43,472 nucleotides of DNA from a virus. Its lineage: Duplodnaviria > Heunggongvirae > Uroviricota > Caudoviricetes. The notes beneath the pieces were generated by a model. It saw only the letters and a program-made list of their open reading frames with translations. It was not told where the DNA came from and searched no databases. Below are positions 1-43,472 of the stretch, in pieces. The DNA is taken from the IMG/VR virus record IMGVR_UViG_2737471820_000002; one strand, 5' to 3'. The position numbers and the translations under genes are program-made. The first letter of the stretch is position 1; each line of letters begins with the position of its first letter.

Positions 1-1275
1 TTAATCACTCAACGTCTTTAATTCTTTGAGCAATTTAGCTTTATCATCATCATTTTTAATAGATGAGATAATCTTCTCAGTTAATGCTAACAATCTAACG
101 AACATTTCGTTTAGCTCTTCATCGTTAGGTGTTTCTATACCATGAAGTAAGTTATTTCTGATTCTTTTAAAATAGTTTAGTTCAAATGACTCTTCTCGCG
201 TCAGCACTCCGTCAGAAACCAATGGCTCAAATTTTGCGGTGAAGAATTTTTTGTGCTGGCGATTGTTTTGATTATGAATTAAAGAGACTGCTTTTTCTAG
301 TAAAATCCATGTTTTAACAAATGACTCAAACCCTGATACATCCTTATGTTCCCCAAGAGCACGTTTGAAATAACTTGAAAGTTTTAAATTACCTCCAACG
401 CTCTTGTATGAATCATTAATAAACATAAGAAGCAATTGATCTGTGATTGTTTCTTTTTCACTTTGATTAATTTTACGCAAATATTCAGAAAGTTCACTGA
501 CGCTTATGCTAGAATTACCCTTGAGATAATTAAATAAAATTTTAGTATCACCTAATTTAAGTTTGCTTATATAATTCTTATTTAGTGAGTTGGTTATAAA
601 ACTCGTTAACTCATATCTATTTGAAATATTATCTTTTTCTTTAGTTCTTTTTGCTATGGCTTTTTGAAGTCTTTCAAGAGCTATTTCGCCAGTAAGCACT
701 AATCCATTAATCTCATCTAGAATTGCAAGTTCCTCTTCAGATAAATCGCCTGCTAGAGGTTTGTAAACAAGGTCATGTTCGACTTCGGACCAGGCATGCA
801 TAAGAACCGATGCTACTTGAATCTCAAATAATGCACTTTCGTAACGCTTATTATTTTGGTTAGAGTTTTTCAAATTGACACGATAATGAGATGCCCAGTA
901 ACCAGAGAACCTTTTTTCAAATTTAGGTTTATAAGATGCTTCTGGAAAGTTTTTCTTTTTCCGGACATTAAATAAAAAATTAATAGTTTCATCAACTACT
1001 TCTCTATCTTTTGGAAAATATAAAGCTACTCGAACACCGGCCAGGTCGAAAATATCTTCATATATATTAGCAACATCTGCATATGCTGACTTTTCATTTC
1101 TTTGATTAAGTTTTTGTTCTAAGCGGTCTGGTCGCTTAGCTCTGAATGAAACTATGGCTTTAATCCCTCTCTTTTCCAATTCCTGCTCGAGCAAGCTTGA
1201 GCCTATTTTTGCCAACTCAGAATAGTAATCATACTGCTTGCTATATTGTTCTAAAAAATCTTTTATGACACTCAT
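1..1275 (-). CDS. RelA/SpoT-family nucleotidyltransferase fused to a C-terminal HEPN-like domain (toxSAS/CapRel-like candidate defence protein)
   Basis: N-terminal region has synthetase-type motifs (FRAKRPDRLEQKL, DIFDLAGVRVALYF, EIQVASVLMHAWSEVEHDLVYK); C-terminal region ends with RIRNNLLHG, matching the HEPN RNxxxH signature; AGGAG-type RBS about 13 nt upstream of the ATG; very AT-rich. Confidence 0.6.
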   Translation of the reverse strand: MSVIKDFLEQYSKQYDYYSELAKIGSSLLEQELEKRGIKAIVSFRAKRPDRLEQKLNQRNEKSAYADVANIYEDIFDLAGVRVALYFPKDREVVDETINFLFNVRKKKNFPEASYKPKFEKRFSGYWASHYRVNLKNSNQNNKRYESALFEIQVASVLMHAWSEVEHDLVYKPLAGDLSEEELAILDEINGLVLTGEIALERLQKAIAKRTKEKDNISNRYELTSFITNSLNKNYISKLKLGDTKILFNYLKGNSSISVSELSEYLRKINQSEKETITDQLLLMFINDSYKSVGGNLKLSSYFKRALGEHKDVSGFESFVKTWILLEKAVSLIHNQNNRQHKKFFTAKFEPLVSDGVLTREESFELNYFKRIRNNLLHGIETPNDEELNEMFVRLLALTEKIISSIKNDDDKAKLLKELKTLSD

Positions 1276-1655
1276 AGAGACTAACTACTCCTTGTATAAG
1301 AAGATTGAATCGAATGATAAAGAAACCTAACGAACTCTAGATGAATGGGTGATAGATTATCCACTTTTGGCACTGTGATAAAGCATTTTTCTGATGAGAT
1401 CTTCCTTGCAAATGAAACTATAACATACTTTGATTATTAATATTAAACAATAATTAATGGCTGTGTTTTTTCACCATAAGGATATCTGAAGATATGTCCG
1501 CTTCTGGCACATAGCAGACCAGAGACACTGGCGTAAAGCCATGGAGGATCGGTGGGAGGAGGTAAAAATCCTCTCATGCAAAAAATATGCAAAATCGATA
1601 ACAGTTGGAAATCATTCAATACTCGCACTATCGGAAGTTCACCAGCCAGTCGTAG

Positions 1656-1700
1656 CACGTTCTTGCATACGACGTGGCTACGGGTTTCGAGACCGACCCG
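1656..1700. repeat. Copy A of an imperfect direct repeat / hairpin element (core TTCTTGCATACGACG)
   Basis: agcacgttcttgcatacgacgtggctacggg sits inside an inverted repeat (cgtagc...gctacg); a second copy lies at 2670-2712. Confidence 0.4.
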
Positions 1701-1778
1701 ATCATCAAACGAAACATAAAATTAGCTCACCTTATGAGGAAAGGTATCTTTTTTCGCTATGTAAATTCAAAGGGTTAG

Positions 1779-2648
<870 letters not shown>

Positions 2649-2669
2649 GTCTTTAAGTGATAAGCATAA

Positions 2670-2712
2670 ACCGCAGCACGATCTTCTTGCATACGACGAG
2701 CCTGCGGTTTCA
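2670..2712. repeat. Copy B of the imperfect direct repeat / hairpin element
   Basis: gcagcacgatcttcttgcatacgacgagcctgcgg is flanked by inverted arms aaccgcag / ctgcggtt; it overlaps the stop codon of the invertase remnant. Confidence 0.4.
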
Positions 2713-2990
2713 TTTATCTCCGACCGGAAACTTCTTATACAGTGTCGATATACCAACATCATAGATGATCGCCACCTTCTGGCGAGGAACGCCTGATGCA
2801 ATTAATCGCCCGGCCTGCGCCCATTGTTCATCTGTTAGGTTTGGCCTACGGCTACCTATCCAACCTCCAGTGAGTGCTCAGCTAATCCCGCCTGCGTTCG
2901 CTCAACAATCATTTCCCTTTCCATTTTGTCCAATTGTTCCCAGTACATCATGGAGAGCCCCATTAGTGCTCTGGTATTAGTGATTTCTAA
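2710..2990 (-). pseudogene. Serine recombinase (Gin/Pin/Hin-type DNA invertase) C-terminal remnant, 5'-truncated and frameshifted
   Basis: Minus-strand translation gives ...LMGLSMMYWEQLDKMEREMIVERTQAGLAEHSLEVG* then, in another frame, GWIGSRRPNLTDEQWAQAGRLIASGVPRQKVAIIYDVGISTLYKKFPVGDK*, resembling the invertase C-terminal HTH (compare Hin/Gin ...EMERELIIERT...GGRPPKLT...QVALIYDV..STLYKK); no catalytic N-terminal domain is present. Confidence 0.55.
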
Positions 2991-3121
2991 TATTTGGAGT
3001 TTAGCAGATGGCACAACCCTGATTGTGTTCCCTTCAATTGATCTATTATTTTTATCAGTTATTTAGTATGCTTACCTTATCAATTAAAGTTTCATAATTA
3101 CAAAATTGGGTCAGTATATAA

Positions 3122-4213
3122 ATGAATAAAAGAAAAACGCTTTTCAATATACAAGCACTAAGGTTTATTGCTGCAGCTATGGTGGTTTTGGCACATGCCG
3201 AACTTGGACAATATGGCATTGGGAATATCGAAATCCTTGCATCTCTGGGAGGATTTGGCGTTATTATATTTTTCATAATTAGTGGGTTTATTATACCTTA
3301 CGTAGCATATGGTGGCTCTCAATCAGAAGGAGAATTCAAAATATCTGCAGGGAACTTTTTTATGCGAAGAGTAATAAGAATAATCCCGGTATATGCTTTA
3401 ATTACCGCCCTTTGCGTTCTATCAGCCTTCATAGTAAAACATTATATATCTTCCCCAACTCCACCTATTGCTTATTGGTGGCCCGAAACAAAAATCAGTC
3501 TTCAATGGTATCTTGAGAGTATTACATTCACTCACTGGCATCGCGATGCAATTCTAAGTATAGGTTGGACATTACAACTTGAATTTTTGTTTTATACTTC
3601 TTTTGCATTTTTTATTGCTATCAAATTATCAAGGTTAGAGTATATAGAGATCTTATTTTTAACTATATCCATAGTAGCTAATATTTTAACTTATCAAAAT
3701 AACAGCATCATATTCGAAATTCTTCCGTTCATGAAAACACTGGCAAGACCAGAAATGGTCGTATTTGCTATGGGTATGTTTATGTATCGATTATACTTAC
3801 TGGGCGCTATGTTAAAAAAAACAATTGCGCTTACAATATTAACTTTGTTTATTCCCACATTCTTATTATGTGAATACTTTAATATTACAACAAACATGGG
3901 GGGGGAATGGCATCGTCCTTTGATATGGGGGTTTTTCGCTTTTTATGGTGTCTGGGCAGCGTTGAGCCTTGAAGGTAAAATAAAACCGGCTAAACTTATT
4001 ATTTTCCTCGGTGATGCTTCATATAGTATATATTTGACGCATGGTTTGATTACAGCTTGGGTATCATATATGTTTGTGTCTTTCGGACTTATTGATTATT
4101 CCAATGTATTTCTATATATTGGAATATACTTTATAATAAGTTGTGCGCTTGGCAGCGTCATTCATATGTACATAGAAAAACCCATCGCAGAATTTTTAAA
4201 ACGTTTTGTTTGA
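3122..4213 (+). CDS. Acyltransferase family 3 membrane protein (OafA/Oac-like, candidate O-antigen acetylase)
   Basis: 363 aa polytopic hydrophobic protein, N-terminal FNIQALRFIAAAMVVLAHA typical of acyltransferase_3; AT-rich; sits where the alternate tail-fibre genes of a Mu-type invertible segment would be. Confidence 0.65.
   Translation: MNKRKTLFNIQALRFIAAAMVVLAHAELGQYGIGNIEILASLGGFGVIIFFIISGFIIPYVAYGGSQSEGEFKISAGNFFMRRVIRIIPVYALITALCVLSAFIVKHYISSPTPPIAYWWPETKISLQWYLESITFTHWHRDAILSIGWTLQLEFLFYTSFAFFIAIKLSRLEYIEILFLTISIVANILTYQNNSIIFEILPFMKTLARPEMVVFAMGMFMYRLYLLGAMLKKTIALTILTLFIPTFLLCEYFNITTNMGGEWHRPLIWGFFAFYGVWAALSLEGKIKPAKLIIFLGDASYSIYLTHGLITAWVSYMFVSFGLIDYSNVFLYIGIYFIISCALGSVIHMYIEKPIAEFLKRFV
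3898..3905 (+). repeat. G8 homopolymeric tract inside the acyltransferase ORF
   Basis: atgggggggggaatgg encodes M-G-G-E-W in frame; counted directly from the sequence. Confidence 0.9.
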
Positions 4214-4265
4214 CCAAATGGTCATAACTACCCCCCTTAAAATACGAAAGTAAATAATTAGAACA

Positions 4266-4292
4266 TGTGCTTTGAGTTAAACACTCAAAGCA
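4266..4292. terminator. Putative hairpin between the acyltransferase and tail-fibre-assembly genes
   Basis: gtgctttgag-ttaaaca-ctcaaagcac, 10-bp stem, followed by an A/T-rich tract; may act bidirectionally. Confidence 0.3.
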
Positions 4293-4441
4293 CAAAATAA
4301 AAAGCGCTGCCATTGTCTATTTTGCCCCTTCTCACGCTCGTTTTTTATTTTATAATAATACACCTCCAGTTACACTGTTGTAATTAAAAGCATGAATCAT
4401 CAATTAGTTCATCCCTTAATCTAACTCTTCCCCAAACGTTC

Positions 4442-5029
4442 CTATTCTGGTTCGGTGGGCCAGTTGATATTTGGCGCAAATGAAGTATCTATAGCCTGAA
4501 TGGCTTTTATGTACTGCACCCACGCAATCAGACTTTCCTTATCCCCATCACTGATGATGTCCAGTCGCAATTCTGTCTGCCAGAGACTTATTTTATCCTG
4601 CGCTTCAGCCAGTAACGCAGCCTTCTTCTGTTCAGCGGCTTCAACATCGGCAACGTGCTGTGCGTCAGTATCTGTTACCCACTTTTTGCCGTCCCACTTT
4701 TGATATGGTCCTGATGGCGCAACAGTTGTGTACCCCTTCCTGACTGGGCCGATATAATCTATAGTGGAAGATGAGGTATCATCGGTTGAATATACCGTTT
4801 CACCACGATGCTCTTCATCCTGTCGCCATCCGGTGCCCGTGAACATAAAAACCTTTCCATCAACCATTTCACCTGGATCAACATCTGTTGAATTACCCGG
4901 CATGCTGACGCCAGCGTTAATATATTCATCTGACCAGCCAGCATATTCCATGGTCACTGCATCGTAATAAAAACAACGAATATCACCGGCCTGCGTTGCC
5001 AGACCATTTTCATCAAAGACAGGTTTCAT
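4442..5029 (-). CDS. Tail fibre assembly protein (Tfa / Mu U-like)
   Basis: 195 aa immediately downstream of the tail fibre gene with a stop/start junction; typical Tfa position and composition. Confidence 0.65.
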   Translation of the reverse strand: MKPVFDENGLATQAGDIRCFYYDAVTMEYAGWSDEYINAGVSMPGNSTDVDPGEMVDGKVFMFTGTGWRQDEEHRGETVYSTDDTSSSTIDYIGPVRKGYTTVAPSGPYQKWDGKKWVTDTDAQHVADVEAAEQKKAALLAEAQDKISLWQTELRLDIISDGDKESLIAWVQYIKAIQAIDTSFAPNINWPTEPE

Positions 5030-6111
5030 TACTTTGCCCTCACCAGGAAATTGAATGCGATGTTGCGCGGTCGGTTCTCGTTTGCAATTGATACCGATGG
5101 GTCTTTTCCAGCGCTGAAGAGAATACTTTGAGCAACAGTGCTTCCGCCTGGCTGGAGGTTCGTTAAGTTTTGTGCCCCCCCAGAATAAAGCGCACCAGAA
5201 TTTGTAGTATTCCCAAAATATTGAACAAAACCGACTTCACCAGTGATATTTCGGATGGCATCCACCTGAGTACTCAGCAATGCCCTTCCTGAATCGACCC
5301 CACGACCATCATCCCAGATACGCGGGAATTCGCCTCGAGCTTCGGGAAGTGTAAGTCCAGGGAACACCTGTGCAAGTTTGGGGTATACCGCAGCAGAAAA
5401 TGACGCGCCGTTAAATTTTAAAAACACCATGTCAGACCATTCGCTTATGACCGTATTCGGCATTGCTGCGGAGGGCCAGAAGAATGGGACACCGATAGCT
5501 GGCGCACCAGACCCCATCCCCACATCTGCTGGCGTTGGCTTATATTTTTCAGAAAAGAGCTTATACTTCCAAATCGTAGTGTTGCCGGTTACAGCACGAA
5601 TGATTGGTGTTGCTCCAGCAGAATTTGCTAGCGGAAGATAAATCTGCACTCGTTGTTTTGATTCGGAATCATACAACAACGTTAGCACCATTCCGTAATC
5701 AATCCCAAAATCCGGGTCTGTATTACCGCCGTATGCATAAAAACCAGAACTTGTTGCGCTCGAAAGCAAGTTAATGTTAGAACCAGCGATATTTTTACCG
5801 ATACCCAGGTCCGTTAAATCAAGGTTTTCGAGAGCTGTTTTCACTGTGCCATCCGATTTGATATCACCAAACGGATTCTTGCGGCTTAACAGCAGAGCAC
5901 GAAGCGCGGTAAGCAACTGGTCGTTTCGCCCCTTCTCCAGGCTGGCACCGGATGCCTCCACCACGCTGCAGAGTTCTTCCTGCAACATATCAAAGTAATC
6001 ATCATCCAGATCGGTGGCAGGTGTGCCAGTCTGGGGGTTACCACGGGTAAAACCGTTCTTACCCGCGCCGAACTTATCCTTCTGCGCGGTTTTCGTGTCT
6101 ATACGATGCAT
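5029..6111 (-). CDS. Tail fibre protein (Mu S-like)
   Basis: 360 aa, Gly/Ser/Thr-rich, placed after the baseplate genes. Confidence 0.65.
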
Positions 6112-6114
6112 GGA

Positions 6115-6699
6115 TTACTCCGGATATTTAAAAATTACGTAGGTATGCGACGGGCAGAGTTTGTTAAGCACACATTCGACAACGGTGTCGCCCCAGATAC
6201 GCAGCGCGGAATCACAGGGATCGCCACATGTCATCCAGGTGGTGTTTGTGGCGGCTGGCATGTTGACCTGCCAGTAATACCGCCATTCCGGCGCATTCAC
6301 CGCGTCAGTACAGGCCGATGAGCAGGTGAACGTGCTTTTGTCGTATCGCGTGATGGTAGCGTCTGGTCTGCCCAGGGCAGCAAGCTGTGCAAGATAAAAA
6401 TTCTCGTTGATGCCGCCCGCCAGGTTAACCTTCGCATCCAGCCGCTGCTGACGCTGACGAAGGGTCTGTGTCCCTGCGGGAATACATTCATCCGGCAGAC
6501 CGCACAGACGCTCCCAGCGGTTTATCAGTTCAGTGGTGGTGCGCGGATCCAGCTCCCGCATCAGGGCATCCGCACGCTGATGAACGCGGGTTAATGACGG
6601 TGCCGCACCGGCAATCGCCGGATCGCTGGCTGACCACGCCGGACCGGGGGGCAACAGTGCCGACAACAGACGGATGTAATCATCGTTTGTCACGTCCAT
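6115..6699 (-). CDS. Mu gp48-like tail/baseplate protein (YmfQ/DUF2313-like)
   Basis: 194 aa in the gp48 position after baseplate J. Confidence 0.5.
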
Positions 6700-7748
6700 G
6701 AAATCGTCCCCAGTACCGCCAGTTCATTTTTTGCAATGGAGATATTGTCTGCCGGTGCAAGCAACTGATGGCTGTATTCCCCGTTCGCACCGGAAATCGC
6801 CTCACTGATACGCGATACCTTCAGTTCTCCCTGCGGATAACCATCACGCAGCAGGAACGAACGCAACTCCGCGGTGATGGCAGCCCGTATTTCCGGTGTG
6901 TCCGGCGTCACGCGGATATGAAAATCCACCGTATGTGCCACCGGCCTGAACACATACAAATCAGAACCTGCCACCGGGGCCAGTGGCCCGATATGTTGTC
7001 TTGCCGCCGTTTCCGTTGATTCTTCAGGAATGGGATTAATCAGGTCACTGCTGGCAATCATCACACCGACAGTTCCCGTTCCCATCCAGTGACGGTATGT
7101 CCATGCGCGGGTAATGCCGGGCACTTCTTTAGCCCAGACGACATAGTCCCCGTCAGCCCCGCCCTGCGGCGTCCAGTAATACCGCTCAATGACGCGGGCG
7201 CGCCACGTTTCCAGCTCTTCAGTATCAAATCCGCCTGTCAGGGTGTCAGCCACACCGGAAGACGGCAGACCATTCACCGGCGTGACCAGGATTAATGCCG
7301 TACCGTCGTCAGCGTTACCGACCGCGCCTGCATTTGAGCAGGCGATCGGCACGCGCAGGACACCACCGGAGCTGGTTGCATCGGCAGTTGCAGTATACTG
7401 AACCAGGTCATCGCGCTGAATAACACTCCCGGCGGTCACCTTCAGGCCATCGCTGACACCTTCCCAGCGCATATACCCGCTGGCAGCCGTGGCCCCCTTG
7501 CGCGGACACCGTTTCATCGCAGCATGTCGCGCCAGCCAGGACTCATCGCACAGGTCAGGCAGCATGTTCATTGCCAGATAATCGATGTACCCGTAAACCG
7601 TATGCAGCGCCGCCGCATACACCTTTGCCCGCACGTCTTCATCCATGCGCCGGAGCGTGTCGCTGACGTCCAGCCTGGCGAATAAATCGTTACGGAGCAT
7701 ACTGATATTTTCTGCCAGCGTCGGGCGCTGAAATTCACTGTCCGCCAT
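6690..7748 (-). CDS. Baseplate J-like protein (Mu gp47)
   Basis: 352 aa, in order within the baseplate module. Confidence 0.6.
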
Positions 7749-25638: not shown

Positions 25639-26691
25639 TTATTTCCCCACCAGTTCACTTACCTCTTTCACCGTCTGATTAAACCGCTCTGACTCAAGTT
25701 CAACACCTAACGCCCGACGCCCCAGCGCCATTGCCGCTTTTATTGTGGAACCGGATCCCATAAAGAAATCAGCAACCAGATCGCCTTGTCGACTACTGGC
25801 ACTGATTATTTGCCGGAGCATATCCGCGGGCTTCTCACACGGATGTTTACCCGGGTAGAACTGAACGGGTTTATGCGTCCAGACGTCGGTATAAGGCACG
25901 GAAACTGATACGGAGAAATAGCGCCGGAGAGTTTTAAACTCATCCAGCAATTCAGAATATTTGCGATTCAGTGAATCATAAGATGCCACCAGCTGGTGGT
26001 GTGGTTGTTCCAGTTGTTGTTCCTGAAATTTCTCTGCCGCTATACGGGAAAACAGTGCCTGCAACTTCCGGTAGTCAGCCTCATTCGGCAACTGCCACTG
26101 ACTGGCACCAAACCAGTGGGAAACCATATTTTTCTTACCAGTGGCTTCGGCAATCTGTTTTGCCGTTATACCCAGTTCGGCACGAGCATCCCTGAAATAC
26201 GAAATCAGCGGTGCCATTATGTGCTGTTTGAGTTGACTTTCTTTTGCCGCATAGCCGTCACTTTTGCCGCGATATGGTCCCTGGTAATGTTCAGCAAACA
26301 GAACGCGTTCTGTTGCGGGAAAATATGCGCGCAGACTTTCTTTATTACACCCGTTCCATCGTCCGGACGGCTTCGCCCAGATAATATGGTTAAGAACGTT
26401 GAAACGTTCACGCATCATGATCTCGATATCAGATGCGAGGCGATGTCCACAGAACAGGTAAAGGCTTCCGGCAGGTTTCAGCACCCGCCAGAACTGAGCC
26501 AGACAGTGGTCCAGCCACTTCAGGTAATCTTCGTCCCCTTTCCACTGATTGTCCCAACCGTTGGGTTTCACCTTGAAGTACGGCGGATCGGTAACAATCA
26601 GGTCAATGGAATCATCAGGCAGGGACTGAATAAAATGCAGGCAATCAGCGTTGATTAAATCAGCACTGTTTATTTTCACAGTATTTTTCAT
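25639..26691 (-). CDS. DNA methyltransferase (N6A/N4C class, DPPY motif)
   Basis: IVTDPPYF motif and C-terminal FFMGSGST SAM-binding motif. Confidence 0.75.
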   Translation of the reverse strand: MKNTVKINSADLINADCLHFIQSLPDDSIDLIVTDPPYFKVKPNGWDNQWKGDEDYLKWLDHCLAQFWRVLKPAGSLYLFCGHRLASDIEIMMRERFNVLNHIIWAKPSGRWNGCNKESLRAYFPATERVLFAEHYQGPYRGKSDGYAAKESQLKQHIMAPLISYFRDARAELGITAKQIAEATGKKNMVSHWFGASQWQLPNEADYRKLQALFSRIAAEKFQEQQLEQPHHQLVASYDSLNRKYSELLDEFKTLRRYFSVSVSVPYTDVWTHKPVQFYPGKHPCEKPADMLRQIISASSRQGDLVADFFMGSGSTIKAAMALGRRALGVELESERFNQTVKEVSELVGK

Positions 26692-27613: not shown

Positions 27614-28696
27614 ATGAAAAAATTAACAGTGGCAATTTCTGCTGTAGCTGCATCAGTACTGATGGCGATGTCTGCTCAGGCAGCTGAAATTTATAATAAA
27701 GACAGTAACAAGCTGGATCTGTACGGGAAAGTTAATGCTAAGCACTACTTCTCCTCTAATGATGCAGATGATGGTGATACTACTTATGCCCGTCTTGGCT
27801 TCAAAGGTGAAACCCAAATCAACGATCAACTGACTGGTTTCGGTCAGTGGGAATATGAATTCAAAGGCAACCGCGCTGAATCTCAAGGTTCCTCCAAAGA
27901 CAAAACCCGTCTTGCATTTGCAGGCCTGAAATTCGGTGACTACGGCTCAATCGATTACGGCCGTAACTACGGTGTAGCATACGACATCGGTGCGTGGACT
28001 GACGTTCTGCCAGAATTCGGTGGCGATACCTGGACCCAAACAGATGTATTCATGACTGGTCGCACCACAGGTGTTGCAACTTATCGTAACAACGACTTCT
28101 TTGGTCTGGTTGATGGCCTGAACTTTGCAGCTCAGTATCAGGGCAAAAATGACCGAAATGAAGTAACTGAAGCTAATGGCGATGGTTTCGGTTTCTCAAC
28201 TACTTATGAGTATGAAGGATTCGGCGTGGGTGCAACCTATGCTAAATCTGATCGCACTAATAATCAGGTTATCTACGGTAACAACGGTCTGAATGCTTCT
28301 GGTCAAAATGCTGAAGTATGGGCAGCTGGTCTGAAATATGATGCGAACAACATCTATCTGGCCACCACCTATTCTGAAACCCAGAACATGACTGTTTTTG
28401 GTAATAACCATATTGCCAACAAAGCACAAAACTTCGAAGCTGTTGCACAATATCAGTTCGACTTCGGCCTGCGTCCATCCGTTGCTTACCTGCACTCTAA
28501 AGGAAAAGACTTGGGTGTTTGGGGTGATCAGGACCTGGTTGAATATGTTGATGTAGGTGCAACCTATTACTTCAACAAAAATATGTCCACTTTTGTTGAC
28601 TACAAAATCAACCTGATTGATAAGAGCGATTTCACGAAAGCATCTGGCGTTGCTACCGATGATATCGTTGCTGTAGGTATGGTTTACCAGTTCTAA
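27614..28696 (+). CDS. Outer membrane porin (OmpC/NmpC/Lc family)
   Basis: Signal peptide [30 protein letters not shown]...LDLYGK start and C-terminal ...VGMVYQF beta-barrel signature; long AT-rich leader. Confidence 0.85.
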
Positions 28697-40652: not shown

Positions 40653-40974
40653 GGCCTGTCAGTTTCTTAAGATATCCAGACCAACCGCCACCAACTGGAT
40701 ACGAACAGGCCGCCTACAGGCAACACGCAAAGACCCCACTAAACCAAAATCTCCTTACCTCACAACGCGACAAGCCTGCATTGCGGCGCTTCAGTCTCCG
40801 CTGCATACTATCAAGGTGAGCGCGGGTGATGGCATAACAGAGGAAAGAAAATGTCACTCTTCCGCAGAAGTGAAATATGGTACGCCAGTTTCACATTGCC
40901 GAACGGTAAAAGATTTAAACAGTCTCTTGGAACAAAGGACAAAAGGCAGGCGACAGAGCTCCATGACAAGCTAA
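40624..40974 (+). CDS. xis: Excisionase (AlpA/Xis-like HTH); 3' boundary uncertain
   Basis: [36 protein letters not shown] is an Xis-type HTH; overlaps the int 5' end as lambda xis does. Confidence 0.5.
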
Positions 40975-42014
40975 AGGCTGAAGCATGGCGGGTCAGCAAA
41001 CTTGGTGAAATACCTGATATGACGTTTGAGGAAGCGTGTGTCAGGTGGCTCGAAGAGAAAGCACATAAAAAATCACTGGACGATGACAAAAGCCGGATCG
41101 GATTCTGGCTTCAACATTTCGCAGGAATGCAACTAAGAGACATTACTGAATCAAAAATTTATTCAGCAATGCAGAAAATGACGAACCGGCGTCATGAGGA
41201 AAACTGGAAACTCAGGGCAGAAGCATGCAGAAAAAAAGGGAAACCTGTTCCAGAATACACGCCAAAACCAGCGTCCGTTGCAACGAAGGCTACGCATCTT
41301 TCATTTATAAAGGCCCTACTAAGAGCCGCAGAGCGTGAATGGAAAATGCTGGATAAGGCACCAATTATTAAAGTGCCTCAACCAAAGAATAAACGGATCC
41401 GCTGGCTGGAGCCCCATGAAGCACAAAGGCTGATTGATGAATGTCCGGAGCCATTAAAGTCTGTTGTTGAATTTGCACTGGCAACAGGCTTAAGACGCTC
41501 GAACATCATCAACCTTGAATGGCAACAAATAGATATGCAGCGCCGGGTGGCATGGATAAACCCGGAAGAGAGTAAATCAAACCGCGCAATTGGCGTTGCG
41601 CTGAATGATACTGCATGTCGCGTATTGAAAAAACAAATCGGGAATCATCACCGTTGGGTATTTGTGTACAAGGAAAGCTGTACCAAACCAGACGGAACGA
41701 AAGCGCCAACAGTAAGGAAGATGCGGTATGACGCAAACACAGCCTGGAAAGCGGCGCTGAGACGGGCTGGTATTGATGATTTCAGATTTCACGACTTGAG
41801 ACACACCTGGGCAAGTTGGCTGGTTCAAGCCGGAGTCCCGTTGTCAGTGTTACAGGAAATGGGAGGCTGGGAGTCTATCGAAATGGTTCGTCGATATGCT
41901 CACCTTGCACCTAATCACCTTACCGAACACGCACGGCAAATAGACTCGATCCTGAACCCATCGGTCCCAAATTTGTCCCAGTCAAAAAATAAGGAAGGTA
42001 CTAATGATGTGTAA
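40851..42014 (+). CDS. int: Tyrosine integrase
   Basis: 387 aa; C-terminal [10 protein letters not shown]...VRRYAH catalytic motifs; adjacent to the tRNA 3' end. Confidence 0.9.
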
Positions 42015-42028
42015 CTTATTGATTTTAA

Positions 42029-42104
42029 TGGTGCCGATAATAGGAGTCGAACCTACGACCTTCGCATTACGAATGCGCTGCTCTACCAACTGAGCTATAT
42101 CGGC
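42029..42104 (-). tRNA. thrW: tRNA-Thr (anticodon CGU)
   Basis: Minus-strand sequence GCCGATATAGCTCAGTTGGTAGAGCAGCGCATTCGTAATGCGAAGGTCGTAGGTTCGACTCCTATTATCGGCACCA has GTTCGA T-loop, anticodon CGT flanked by T and A, and 3' CCA. Confidence 0.85.
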
Positions 42105-42218: not shown

Positions 42219-43472
42219 TTACGCACGAATGGTGTAATCACCAATGCCGATCCACTTGTAAGTGGTCAGTGCTTCCAGCCCCATTGGGCCACGCGCGTGG
42301 AGTTTTTGTGTGCTTACCGCCACTTCCGCACCCAGACCAAACTGGCCGCCGTCGGTAAAACGCGTAGAGGCGTTAACGTAAACAGCGGACGAATCCACTT
42401 CGTTAACAAAACGCTGGGCGTTGCGCATATCGCGGGTCAGGATCGCATCGGAGTGTTGTGTGCCGTGTTCACGAATATGGGCGATGGCATCGTCAAGATC
42501 GCTGACGATTTTGACGTTCAAATCTAATGACAGAAACTCATCGTCATACTCTTCGGCTTTAACAGCAACCACCTTCGCAGGGCCTGCCTGCAACTGCGCC
42601 AGTGCAGCTGCATCTGCGTGTAATGTCACGCCGCTTTCCGCCATTTGTTTGCTTAATGCGGGCAGGAAGCTATCGGCGATGTTTTTATTCACCAGCAACG
42701 TTTCAACCGTATTACATGTGCTCGGACGCTGAGTTTTCGCGTTGACGATCACTTTTAATGCTTCAGCGATCTCTACACTTTCATCAACGTAAATATGGCA
42801 TACGCCTATACCACCTGTGATCACCGGGATTGTCGACTGTTCACGGCACAGTTTATGCAAACCAGCGCCACCACGCGGGATCAGCATGTCGATGTATTTA
42901 TCCATACGCAGCATTTCACTGACCAGCGCACGGTCAGGATTATCAATCGCCTGCACGGCACCCGCCGGTAAGCCGCAGGATTTCAGGGCGTCCTGAATCA
43001 CCGCCACCGTTGCAGCGTTAGTGCGACACGTTTCTTTGCCACCGCGCAGGATCACCGCATTACCGGTTTTCAGGCACAGCGAAGCGACATCAACCGTCAC
43101 GTTCGGGCGCGCTTCATAAATCACGCCAATAACCCCCAGCGGTACGCGACGACGCTCAAGACGCAGGCCGCTGTCCAGTACGCCGCCATCGATTACCTGC
43201 CCCACCGGATCGGCGAGGTTGCACACCTGACGTACATCGTCGGCAATGCCTTTCAGCCGTGCGGGCGTCAGTGCCAGACGGTCAAGCATCGCTTCGCTAA
43301 GGCCATTGGCTCGCGCGTCAGCAACATCCTGGGCGTTAGCGTTGAGGATGATTTCGCTTTGTGCTTCCAGTTCATCGGCGATTTTTTCCAGCACGCGATT
43401 TTTTTCGCGGCTGGAGAGTTGCGCTAATTTATACGAGGCTTGCTTCGCGGCAATGCCCATTTGTTCCAGCAT
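42219..43472 (-). CDS. proA: Gamma-glutamyl phosphate reductase
   Basis: 417 aa, complete, recognisable as E. coli ProA over its whole length. Confidence 0.95.

Follow-up and report, generated by a model that had tools for sequence, protein, structure and literature searches.

The distal tail-fibre region of a 43,472-nucleotide stretch of prophage DNA (IMG/VR record IMGVR_UViG_2737471820_000002) is probably an imported, fixed module in which a Pin-type invertible switch is dead and an AT3-type membrane acyltransferase is carried as lysogenic-conversion cargo, within a temperate prophage of SfV/e14 type. The whole 43.5 kb that was analysed is referred to here as the window. The module, at approximately 2670–5886, would comprise an invertase stub, a fragment of an IS630-family insertion sequence (IS), the acyltransferase gene, a chaperone gene and a fibre tip. 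A preliminary description, made from the letters alone, had placed at 2710–4213 a frameshifted C-terminal invertase fragment and an acyltransferase where alternate fibre genes would sit, and had proposed that a conversion gene replaced a lost host-range switch. Those coordinates proved accurate, with the refinements that the remnant ends at 2977 rather than ~3000 and is followed by a previously unnoticed IS630 fragment at 2978–3065.

The invertase remnant

The minus strand at 2710–2977 aligned with nucleotides 284–555 of the 555-nt pinE gene of an intact relative, E. coli strain 90-1 (NZ_CP050047, hereafter L002), with a blastn E-value of 5e-61. The translated remnant was 83% identical to PinE residues 126–184 (blastx E = 5e-31), and its conceptual translation matched the Pfam resolvase helix-turn-helix (HTH) model HTH_7 (E = 1.7e-11). 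The remnant is homologous to the Din-family invertases, including the C-terminal HTH, as the preliminary description had claimed. Alignment to pin-type invertases, the failure of which had been named as grounds for abandoning that description, gave strong similarity to serine recombinases. The frameshift falls after MEREMIVERTQAGL, the frame beyond it reading GSRRPNLTDEQW... or, up to its stop codon, GSRRPNLTDEQWAQAGRLIASGVPRQKVAIIYDVGISTLYKKFPVGDK. In relatives the same stretch is labelled by RefSeq as 'helix-turn-helix domain-containing protein; frameshifted; missing N-terminus'.

Only pinE codons ~95–184 are represented. The first 283 nt, which encode the catalytic N-terminal ~94 codons, are absent, and with them the catalytic domain and active-site serine (Ser ~10) of an intact serine invertase. 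In the gin, hin, cin and pin systems the Fis-dependent recombinational enhancer sits in the 5' part of the invertase gene. This part is deleted here, the enhancer sequence itself not having been searched for separately. Expression of the HTH stub as a small protein was considered and rejected, since no in-frame start leaves more than ~21 codons and stops abound in the corresponding Citrobacter copy.

Comparison with an intact switch

The flanks of the L002 switch match window 1496–2926 and 5816–7000, each at 97%. Between them L002 contains, in order, pinE (minus strand), the crossover site pixR, an alternate fibre tip (plus), tfaE (plus), tfa (minus) and the fibre gene (minus), within which lies pixL. 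The two inverted repeats of L002 equal the published pixL (TTCTCCCAAACC AA GGTTTTCGAGAG) and pixR exactly, and the same intact arrangement was found in hundreds of other complete E. coli genomes. The comparison with intact relatives that had been called for thus placed pinE, pixR, an alternate tip, tfaE and pixL at the same place as the module. In the window the slot of the alternate genes is filled by an intact open reading frame (ORF) for a 363-aa AT3 acyltransferase, in the same orientation as the missing genes, and the earlier assignment of an acyltransferase to this opposite-strand slot was correct.

Crossover sites were sought with a half-site position weight matrix built from 13 published Din-type sites, on which the two L002 sites scored 30.7 and 27.8. 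The best site in the window scored 14.4 and is a relic of pixL (GTCCGTTAAATC AA GGTTTTCGAGAG) at 5809–5834, inside the fibre gene. Its constant-side half is identical to that of published pixL, while its variable-side half scored 0.0 compared with 11.5–16.3 for genuine halves, and homology with L002 breaks within this variable-side half. Nothing else in 2600–5790 scored above 6.8 when the matrix was scanned for a second site, and a core-pattern search of the window gave 22 hits against 21.5 expected, which is chance frequency. A half-site-like motif at 4427 was rejected as a second site, since its score of 7.9 is reached ~44 times in the window. The search for gix-like 26-bp sites proposed in the preliminary description was therefore borne out for one half of pixL in the fibre gene; there was no site near 2700–3100, and no complete site, let alone an inverted pair flanking a segment, survives.

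Searches of the 43 kb by tblastn, using both L002 sets and the window's own fibre and chaperone as queries, detected no other copy of an invertase, fibre or chaperone. The fibre and tfa genes are present once each, at 4445–6111 only, and the window holds no alternate fibre C-terminus or chaperone. An intact invertase or alternate fibre genes elsewhere in the element would have told against the loss of the switch, and neither was found.

Because there is no recombinase, no site pair and no alternate genes, the switch is dead and the fibre is locked in one orientation. The earlier suggestion that the host-range switch was lost is supported by the comparison with L002 and by the absence of the catalytic domain, sites and alternate genes. 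The window shares its phage lineage and locus with the e14 P-segment/Pin switch (and the Mu G-segment/Gin switch), and its fibre constant part, constant-side pixL half and last 38 pinE codons are identical or nearly identical to those of the e14-type switch. In contrast to that switch, it lacks a catalytic domain, a complete crossover site and alternate fibre and chaperone genes, and cannot invert. The remnant is a relic of the e14 Pin/P-segment system that retains none of the functional features of a switch.

Din-family invertases complement one another, and an invertase supplied in trans, for example e14 Pin, could in principle still act on the surviving site, causing inversion or rearrangement with other chromosomal pix sites. 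The constant-side half-site is intact, and pinE is present in thousands of E. coli genomes. However, the variable-side half has none of the score of a real half-site, the window contains no partner site and the invertase gene has lost its 5' part, where the enhancer lies, so that rearrangement in trans is considered extremely improbable.

The IS630 fragment and the acyltransferase leader

Directly next to the remnant, the minus strand at 2978–3065 contains 88 bp from the left end of an ISSpu2-like element of the IS630 family. This fragment matched, at 73–79%, the ~90 bp just 5' of IS630-family transposase genes on seven or more plasmids, from E. coli, Klebsiella, Enterobacter and many Pantoea. 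All of the plasmid matches stop at one query position. The alignment begins at window 3065 with TAAATAACTG, the conserved terminal repeat, and ends ~10 bases short of the expected transposase ATG. No transposase or right end was found at the fragment, and of the parts of a complete IS630 element (two inverted repeats, a transposase and a TA duplication) only the left 88 bp are present. Invertase codon ~95 is thus joined directly to the interior of an IS630-type element, one deletion having cut both.

Between the IS end and the acyltransferase ATG lies a 56-bp leader (3066–3121, plus strand) with no consensus sigma-70 promoter. The IS fragment and leader, 145 bp together, were compared with the related loci described below. 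They are more conserved than the synonymous sites of the acyltransferase both in an enterobacterial metagenome contig, L008 (0.76 compared with 0.54), and in the Citrobacter locus, L019 (0.88 compared with 0.77). This suggests, from conservation of the sequence, that the regulatory region of the acyltransferase may lie in the 145-bp IS fragment and leader (2978–3121).

The acyltransferase

The gene at 3122–4213 (plus strand, 1092 nt) encodes an intact AT3-only membrane acyltransferase of 363 aa and lies tail-to-tail with the fibre assembly gene, which comes after the fibre gene. The Pfam family Acyl_transf_3 (PF01757) matched it end to end, residues 9–347 aligning with model positions 3–324 of 326 (E = 1e-25, 90.9 bits against a cut-off of 31), and PHROG 3333, 'O-acetyltransferase', matched with E = 5e-82. 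The R/K-X10-H motif of the first transmembrane segment and the RXXR motif of the first cytoplasmic loop are essential in AT3 proteins (PMC9558356). Here they are represented by R14-X10-H25 and R83-V-I-R86, and neither varies in eight homologues, the most distant of them 47% identical. The single Pfam domain in 363 aa leaves no room for an SGNH domain. Members of the AT3 family are polytopic, with about 10 transmembrane helices, and a crude Kyte-Doolittle scan, too coarse for a helix count, gave several strongly hydrophobic stretches. The G+C content of the gene is ~29–38% compared with 53–62% in the tail genes.

Searches against NCBIfam and PADLOC assigned the acyltransferase to no family, and no related solved structure was found in the PDB by sequence. 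A tblastn search of a phage database returned a single weak match, from a Psychrobacillus phage. Automated names among the distant homologues include ExoZ and OafA/YrhL.

The ratio of nonsynonymous to synonymous substitution (dN/dS) of the acyltransferase is 0.10–0.13 at a dS of 0.27–0.72. The 1092-nt ORF is free of indels and stops in the window, in L004 (a second E. coli prophage with the module), in L019 and in L008, while the adjacent pin' and tfa remnants pick up stops and gaps. On this comparison of coding sequences the gene is under purifying selection, and is taken to be functional. The ACYLTRANSFERASE is the selected, functional cargo of the module.

It could be argued that the acyltransferase is a non-functional hitch-hiker and that the cargo of interest lies elsewhere, for example in the neighbouring PD-T4-3 defence gene; no promoter was found for the acyltransferase, and the gene is rare. 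Against this stand the dN/dS of ~0.1, the absence of a single indel in 1092 nt across three lineages and the conservation of the upstream 145 bp above the synonymous-site level, together with the absence of PD-T4-3 from half of the module carriers. It is hardly credible that the gene is without function.

Age, mosaic origin and mobility of the module

The same order of pin' starting from the same codon, IS fragment, acyltransferase, spacer and tfa 3' end was found in other lineages. In Citrobacter meridianamericanus (L019) the match is 87.7% over window 2820–4677, and the locus (5602–7543) is a remnant of ~3.5 kb with a truncated integrase, between pphA-like and yebY/yebZ-like genes; its invertase stub is riddled with stops. 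In two metagenome-assembled enterobacterial contigs (L008 and L009) the match is 81% over window 2971–4558, and the locus (L008 1967–3603) lies between pgl-like and ybhA-like genes, beside lambda-Int-like fragments. The L019 and L008 remnants are both shorter than 4 kb, and in both the invertase stub, tfa and integrase are broken and the acyltransferase ORF alone is intact, an apparent domestication of the gene by the host.

Since the same junction occurs in Citrobacter and in the other remnant at 81–88% identity, the truncation is ancient and of single origin, and travels with the module; it does not reflect recent decay inside this prophage. The stub itself is a mosaic. Its 3' HTH segment (2710–2823, minus strand, PinE codons ~147–184) is 100% identical to the e14-type pinE of L002 and 51% identical to L019. 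The remainder (2824–2977, minus strand, PinE codons ~95–146) carries indels and the frameshift and is ~62% identical to pinE, compared with 84.5% to the equally broken copy of L019; it gave weak matches (72–75%) to other 'recombinase family' genes. The abrupt change of identity at ~2823 therefore marks a homologous-recombination junction inside the invertase 3' end and not uniform decay.

These data bear on whether the switch decayed recently and in place, in this prophage lineage, by IS insertion, deletion and point mutations. The GIY-YIG gene upstream, the pin 3' end and the fibre constant part are 97–100% identical to those of prophages with working switches, as recent decay would predict. 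The identical junction and gene order in Citrobacter and L008 at 81–88%, with an acyltransferase dS of up to 0.72, the fall of identity to e14-type pinE from 100% to ~62% at a single point, and the presence of the same module in an unrelated argW prophage all argue the other way, and decay in place is judged very unlikely.

The mobility of the module is apparent from its distribution. Window 2670–5886 recurs at 98.9% in L004, an argW prophage with a different baseplate; two unrelated backbones carry the module. None of the fibre tip, chaperone, spacer and acyltransferase was found without the others, all four being present in the same six of 5426 complete E. coli genomes and in four IMG/VR contigs. 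A search of IMG/VR gave 27 loci in all, of which these four have the identical module, whereas no homologue of pin, fibre or tfa lies close to any of the others; the single locus found among GTDB representatives is scarred too. This distribution represents ordinary prophage mosaicism. A different serine recombinase gene is present at 1798–2160 in one of the IMG/VR contigs with the identical module (L025), about 4.4 kb away from the stub; its product shares 39% identity with PinE residues 3–124 and is apparently unrelated to the relic switch.

The tail fibre assembly (chaperone) gene (4442–5029, minus strand, 195 aa; Pfam Caudo_TAP E = 3.9e-32) is present in a single copy in the window. The intact tail fibre gene (5029–6111, minus strand, 360 aa) has a constant N-terminal part of 99 aa, 97% identical to the L002 fibre, and a tip (5029–~5815) specific to the acyltransferase module. 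The spacer between the convergent acyltransferase and tfa genes (4214–4441) contains a hairpin with a 12-bp stem at 4266–4294 and was found only with the module. A second hairpin, read from the sequence at 2671–2709 (CCGCAG...CTGCGG then TTTC), lies just 3' of the pin' stop codon and forms the left edge of the module common to L003 and L004, where BLAST homology begins at 2670–2672.

Relation to known conversion systems and the likely substrate

Acyltransferases beside receptor-binding genes are known from several phages, and the present gene is a new lineage of this class of prophage AT3 morons. Shigella phage SfII belongs to the same phage family as the window (94.5% nucleotide identity over baseplate and fibre N-terminus) and carries the AT3 gene oacD convergent with tfa in the same slot, with an IS-derived neighbour; the order there is oacD beside the IS element, between tfa and gtrII-gtrB-gtrA-int. 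SfII differs in having no invertase remnant, in carrying gtr genes and in that its IS is an intact ISSfl9 of the IS4 family, not an IS630 fragment. In SfV, of the same family, the slot between tfa and attP/int holds the gtrA-gtrB-gtrV cassette, in opposite orientation to the tail genes and set off by a terminator. This is a three-protein glucosylation system, in contrast to a single acyltransferase.

The closest characterised relative found for the acyltransferase is Oac (OacA) of phage Sf6, the O-antigen 2-O-acetylase of rhamnose I, which is likewise AT3-only and 29% identical over 208 aa (BLASTP E = 2e-7). The two proteins share the His/RxxR motif region, and Sf6 has the same order of receptor-binding protein (a tailspike), convergent acyltransferase and int. 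Sf6 is however a P22-like podovirus, and its Oac is a distant relative only.

NeaT of the E. coli CFT073 prophage phi-b0847 is encoded by an A+T-rich, phyletically rare PF01757 gene in a P2-like prophage (PMC3573123). Like the present gene it has a low G+C content and lies directly after, and in opposite orientation to, the prophage tail fibre assembly gene. It differs in its P2-like phage background, in having no pairwise similarity to the acyltransferase and in the absence of an invertase or IS scar. The G+C content of the acyltransferase corresponds to the unameliorated composition reported for phage-borne neaT-type acyltransferases (PMC3573123). Membership of the same family as OacD or NeaT was considered and rejected on BLASTP E-values of 0.59 and 0.71, respectively; these proteins are positional analogues and not close relatives.

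Homologues of the acyltransferase at 60–65% identity were found in other prophages, convergent to tailspike genes and beside int or lysis genes. In one such arrangement (L013–L016, 8001–11704) a 60%-identical acyltransferase is flanked by intS (argW) and by the convergent gene for an 860-aa tailspike with Tail_spike_N and Lipase_GDSL_2 domains, a pairing of an acyltransferase and a putative deacylating tailspike in one prophage. Another homologue sits between a lysis cassette and a pectate-lyase-type tailspike.

The earlier proposal that the lost switch was replaced by a lysogenic-conversion gene is supported. Synteny, AT3 family membership and purifying selection make conversion a well-founded prediction from the sequence. 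An alternative that we regard as unlikely, but worth weighing, is that the enzyme is functional and acts not on O-antigen but on another envelope glycan, with enterobacterial common antigen, colanic acid or capsule, peptidoglycan and periplasmic glucans as candidates, or that it is a NeaT-like host fitness factor. AT3-only proteins act on many substrates (PMC9558356), and NeaT, in the equivalent position of its P2-like prophage, influences virulence and aggregation but has no substrate assigned to it (PMC3573123). The names ExoZ and OafA/YrhL given automatically to distant homologues, and the retention of the gene in Citrobacter and L008 after phage decay, which implies a host benefit independent of the phage, would also fit such a role. 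On the other side, the nearest characterised relative is the O-antigen acetylase of Sf6, the gene is strictly tied to one fibre tip and chaperone, its homologues adjoin tailspikes, one of them with an esterase domain, and the same slot in this phage family holds O-antigen modification genes.

Prophage background and neighbouring genes

The prophage in the window is temperate and of E. coli type, and it belongs with SfV and e14. Its tyrosine integrase gene (40851–42014) abuts a tRNA-Thr(cgt) gene (42029–42104), beside which lies a 417-aa ORF (42219–43472) that, with no search of the ORF itself, we take to be proA; the prophage is integrated at thrW, adjoining proA. The gene content includes a CI-like repressor, a replication O-like gene, terminase, portal, major head, sheath, tape measure and baseplate hub. 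The Mu-type baseplate genes GP46, GP47 and GP48/YmfQ are present, with a Pfam match to Phage_Mu_Gp48. The baseplate and fibre N-terminal region is 94–96% identical in nucleotides to that of Shigella phages SfV, SfI, SfII and SfIV, and the SfV annotation labels these baseplate genes as similar to Mu P and GP45–48; the Mu-like character attributed to the tail module in the preliminary description was thus confirmed. With a Mu-like baseplate and tail, an HK97-type head and an integrase at thrW/proA, the window is a structurally complete SfV/e14-type temperate phage combining an HK97-like head, a Mu-like contractile tail and lambdoid regulation.

Upstream of the module, the GIY-YIG protein encoded at 1872–2648 (plus strand) is a full-length match to the PADLOC model PD-T4-3 (E = 2.3e-140). 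PD-T4-3 is CMoRE, a type IV restriction endonuclease that cuts DNA modified with 5-hydroxymethylcytosine (5hmC) or glucosyl-5hmC (PMC12923530). The gene is a presence/absence polymorphism, L003 and L004 being without 1687–2671, and is bracketed by a ~38-bp imperfect direct repeat of the hairpin (1651–1688 and 2671–2710).

At the edge of the window, 1–1275 (minus strand, ~30% G+C) encodes 424 aa, the N-terminal part of which matches the RelA_SpoT nucleotidyltransferase domain (Pfam E = 1e-13); the PADLOC candidate PDC-S33 matched the protein weakly (E = 2e-8). Among complete E. coli genomes only three carry the gene, which, from its place at the prophage edge and its domain, resembles a toxin or defence gene of the small-alarmone-synthetase type. 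The ~190 bp at 1497–1686 are present in over 3000 complete E. coli genomes and, with ~90% identity, close to the termini of HK97, HK106 and many Stx-converting phages. This stretch is annotated as a 'capsid protein' fragment by PGAP and has no feature under the match in the phage records; an Rfam search of 1–6500 gave no match at E ≤ 1, so that it is not a known RNA. Further into the window are a phage DNA methyltransferase gene (25639–26691, minus strand) and, in the early/late junction region, an opposite-strand gene (27614–28696, plus strand) for a 360-aa protein of PHROG 410, of unknown function (E = 2.8e-224).

Proposed history of the module and significance

From the observed anatomy, homologies, junctions, absent switch parts, purifying selection and distribution we infer an order of events, and with it the substrate and effect of the acyltransferase. 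In the ancestor of the module a Pin/Gin-type switch would have been destroyed by a deletion that joined nt ~88 of an IS630-family element to invertase codon ~95, taking with it the catalytic domain, the enhancer-bearing 5' part, the invertase-proximal crossover site and any alternate fibre genes in between. The module would later have moved among prophages by homologous recombination; in this prophage its left junction is probably at ~2823, within the 3' end of the invertase gene, and its right one in the fibre constant part. In the lysogen, the inner-membrane AT3-only enzyme is predicted to acylate, probably acetylate, a surface glycan, drawing the acyl group from cytoplasmic acyl-CoA and passing it across the membrane; the most probable acceptor is the O-antigen or O-unit of lipopolysaccharide (LPS). 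Such acylation would alter the serotype and the receptor met by this and other phages, and the strict linkage of the gene to one fibre tip fits the pairing of a receptor-binding tip with a receptor-modifying enzyme.

Several observations weigh against this reading. No relative with the acyltransferase beside an intact invertase or intact IS630 was found in IMG/VR or the GTDB representative genomes; without such an ancestral state, the former presence of alternate fibre genes between the invertase and this acyltransferase is conjectural. At the IS/pin junction ~20 nt can be aligned either way, which leaves the breakpoint uncertain by ~20 nt. No plus-strand candidate for a sigma-70 promoter of the acyltransferase was found in 2900–3121, and inspection of the conserved upstream blocks by eye gave nothing convincing as a promoter. 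Pairwise BLASTP detected no similarity to OacD or NeaT, and Sf6 Oac is only a distant relative. Finally, an attR copy of the thrW 3' end was sought in the first 6 kb; only 11-mers matched, so that this search marked no left boundary of the prophage.

A more speculative proposal is that the pin 3' relic and the fibre constant end serve as homology arms for a cassette of tip, chaperone and acyltransferase, with the IS end and leader co-opted as the promoter or regulatory region of the acyltransferase. The invertase 3' end and the fibre constant end are each common to thousands of E. coli prophages. We hold this proposal to be possible but doubtful; if true, a receptor-binding tip and a receptor-modifying enzyme would hop together between unrelated prophage backbones.

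These results do not change current understanding, the principle having already been set by SfII oacD, Sf6 oac, phiV10 oac and CFT073 neaT. They provide a clean, datable case of the loss of a host-range switch and the settling of a surface-modifying moron beside receptor-binding genes. Few E. coli genomes carry this acyltransferase lineage, which is kept under purifying selection even in the decayed prophages of Citrobacter and L008. The enzyme is a plausible candidate for an O-antigen or LPS acylation not yet recognised, with possible effects on serotyping and on susceptibility to phages, for instance in the carrier strain NZ_CP102488 (O15:H18, sequence type 69).

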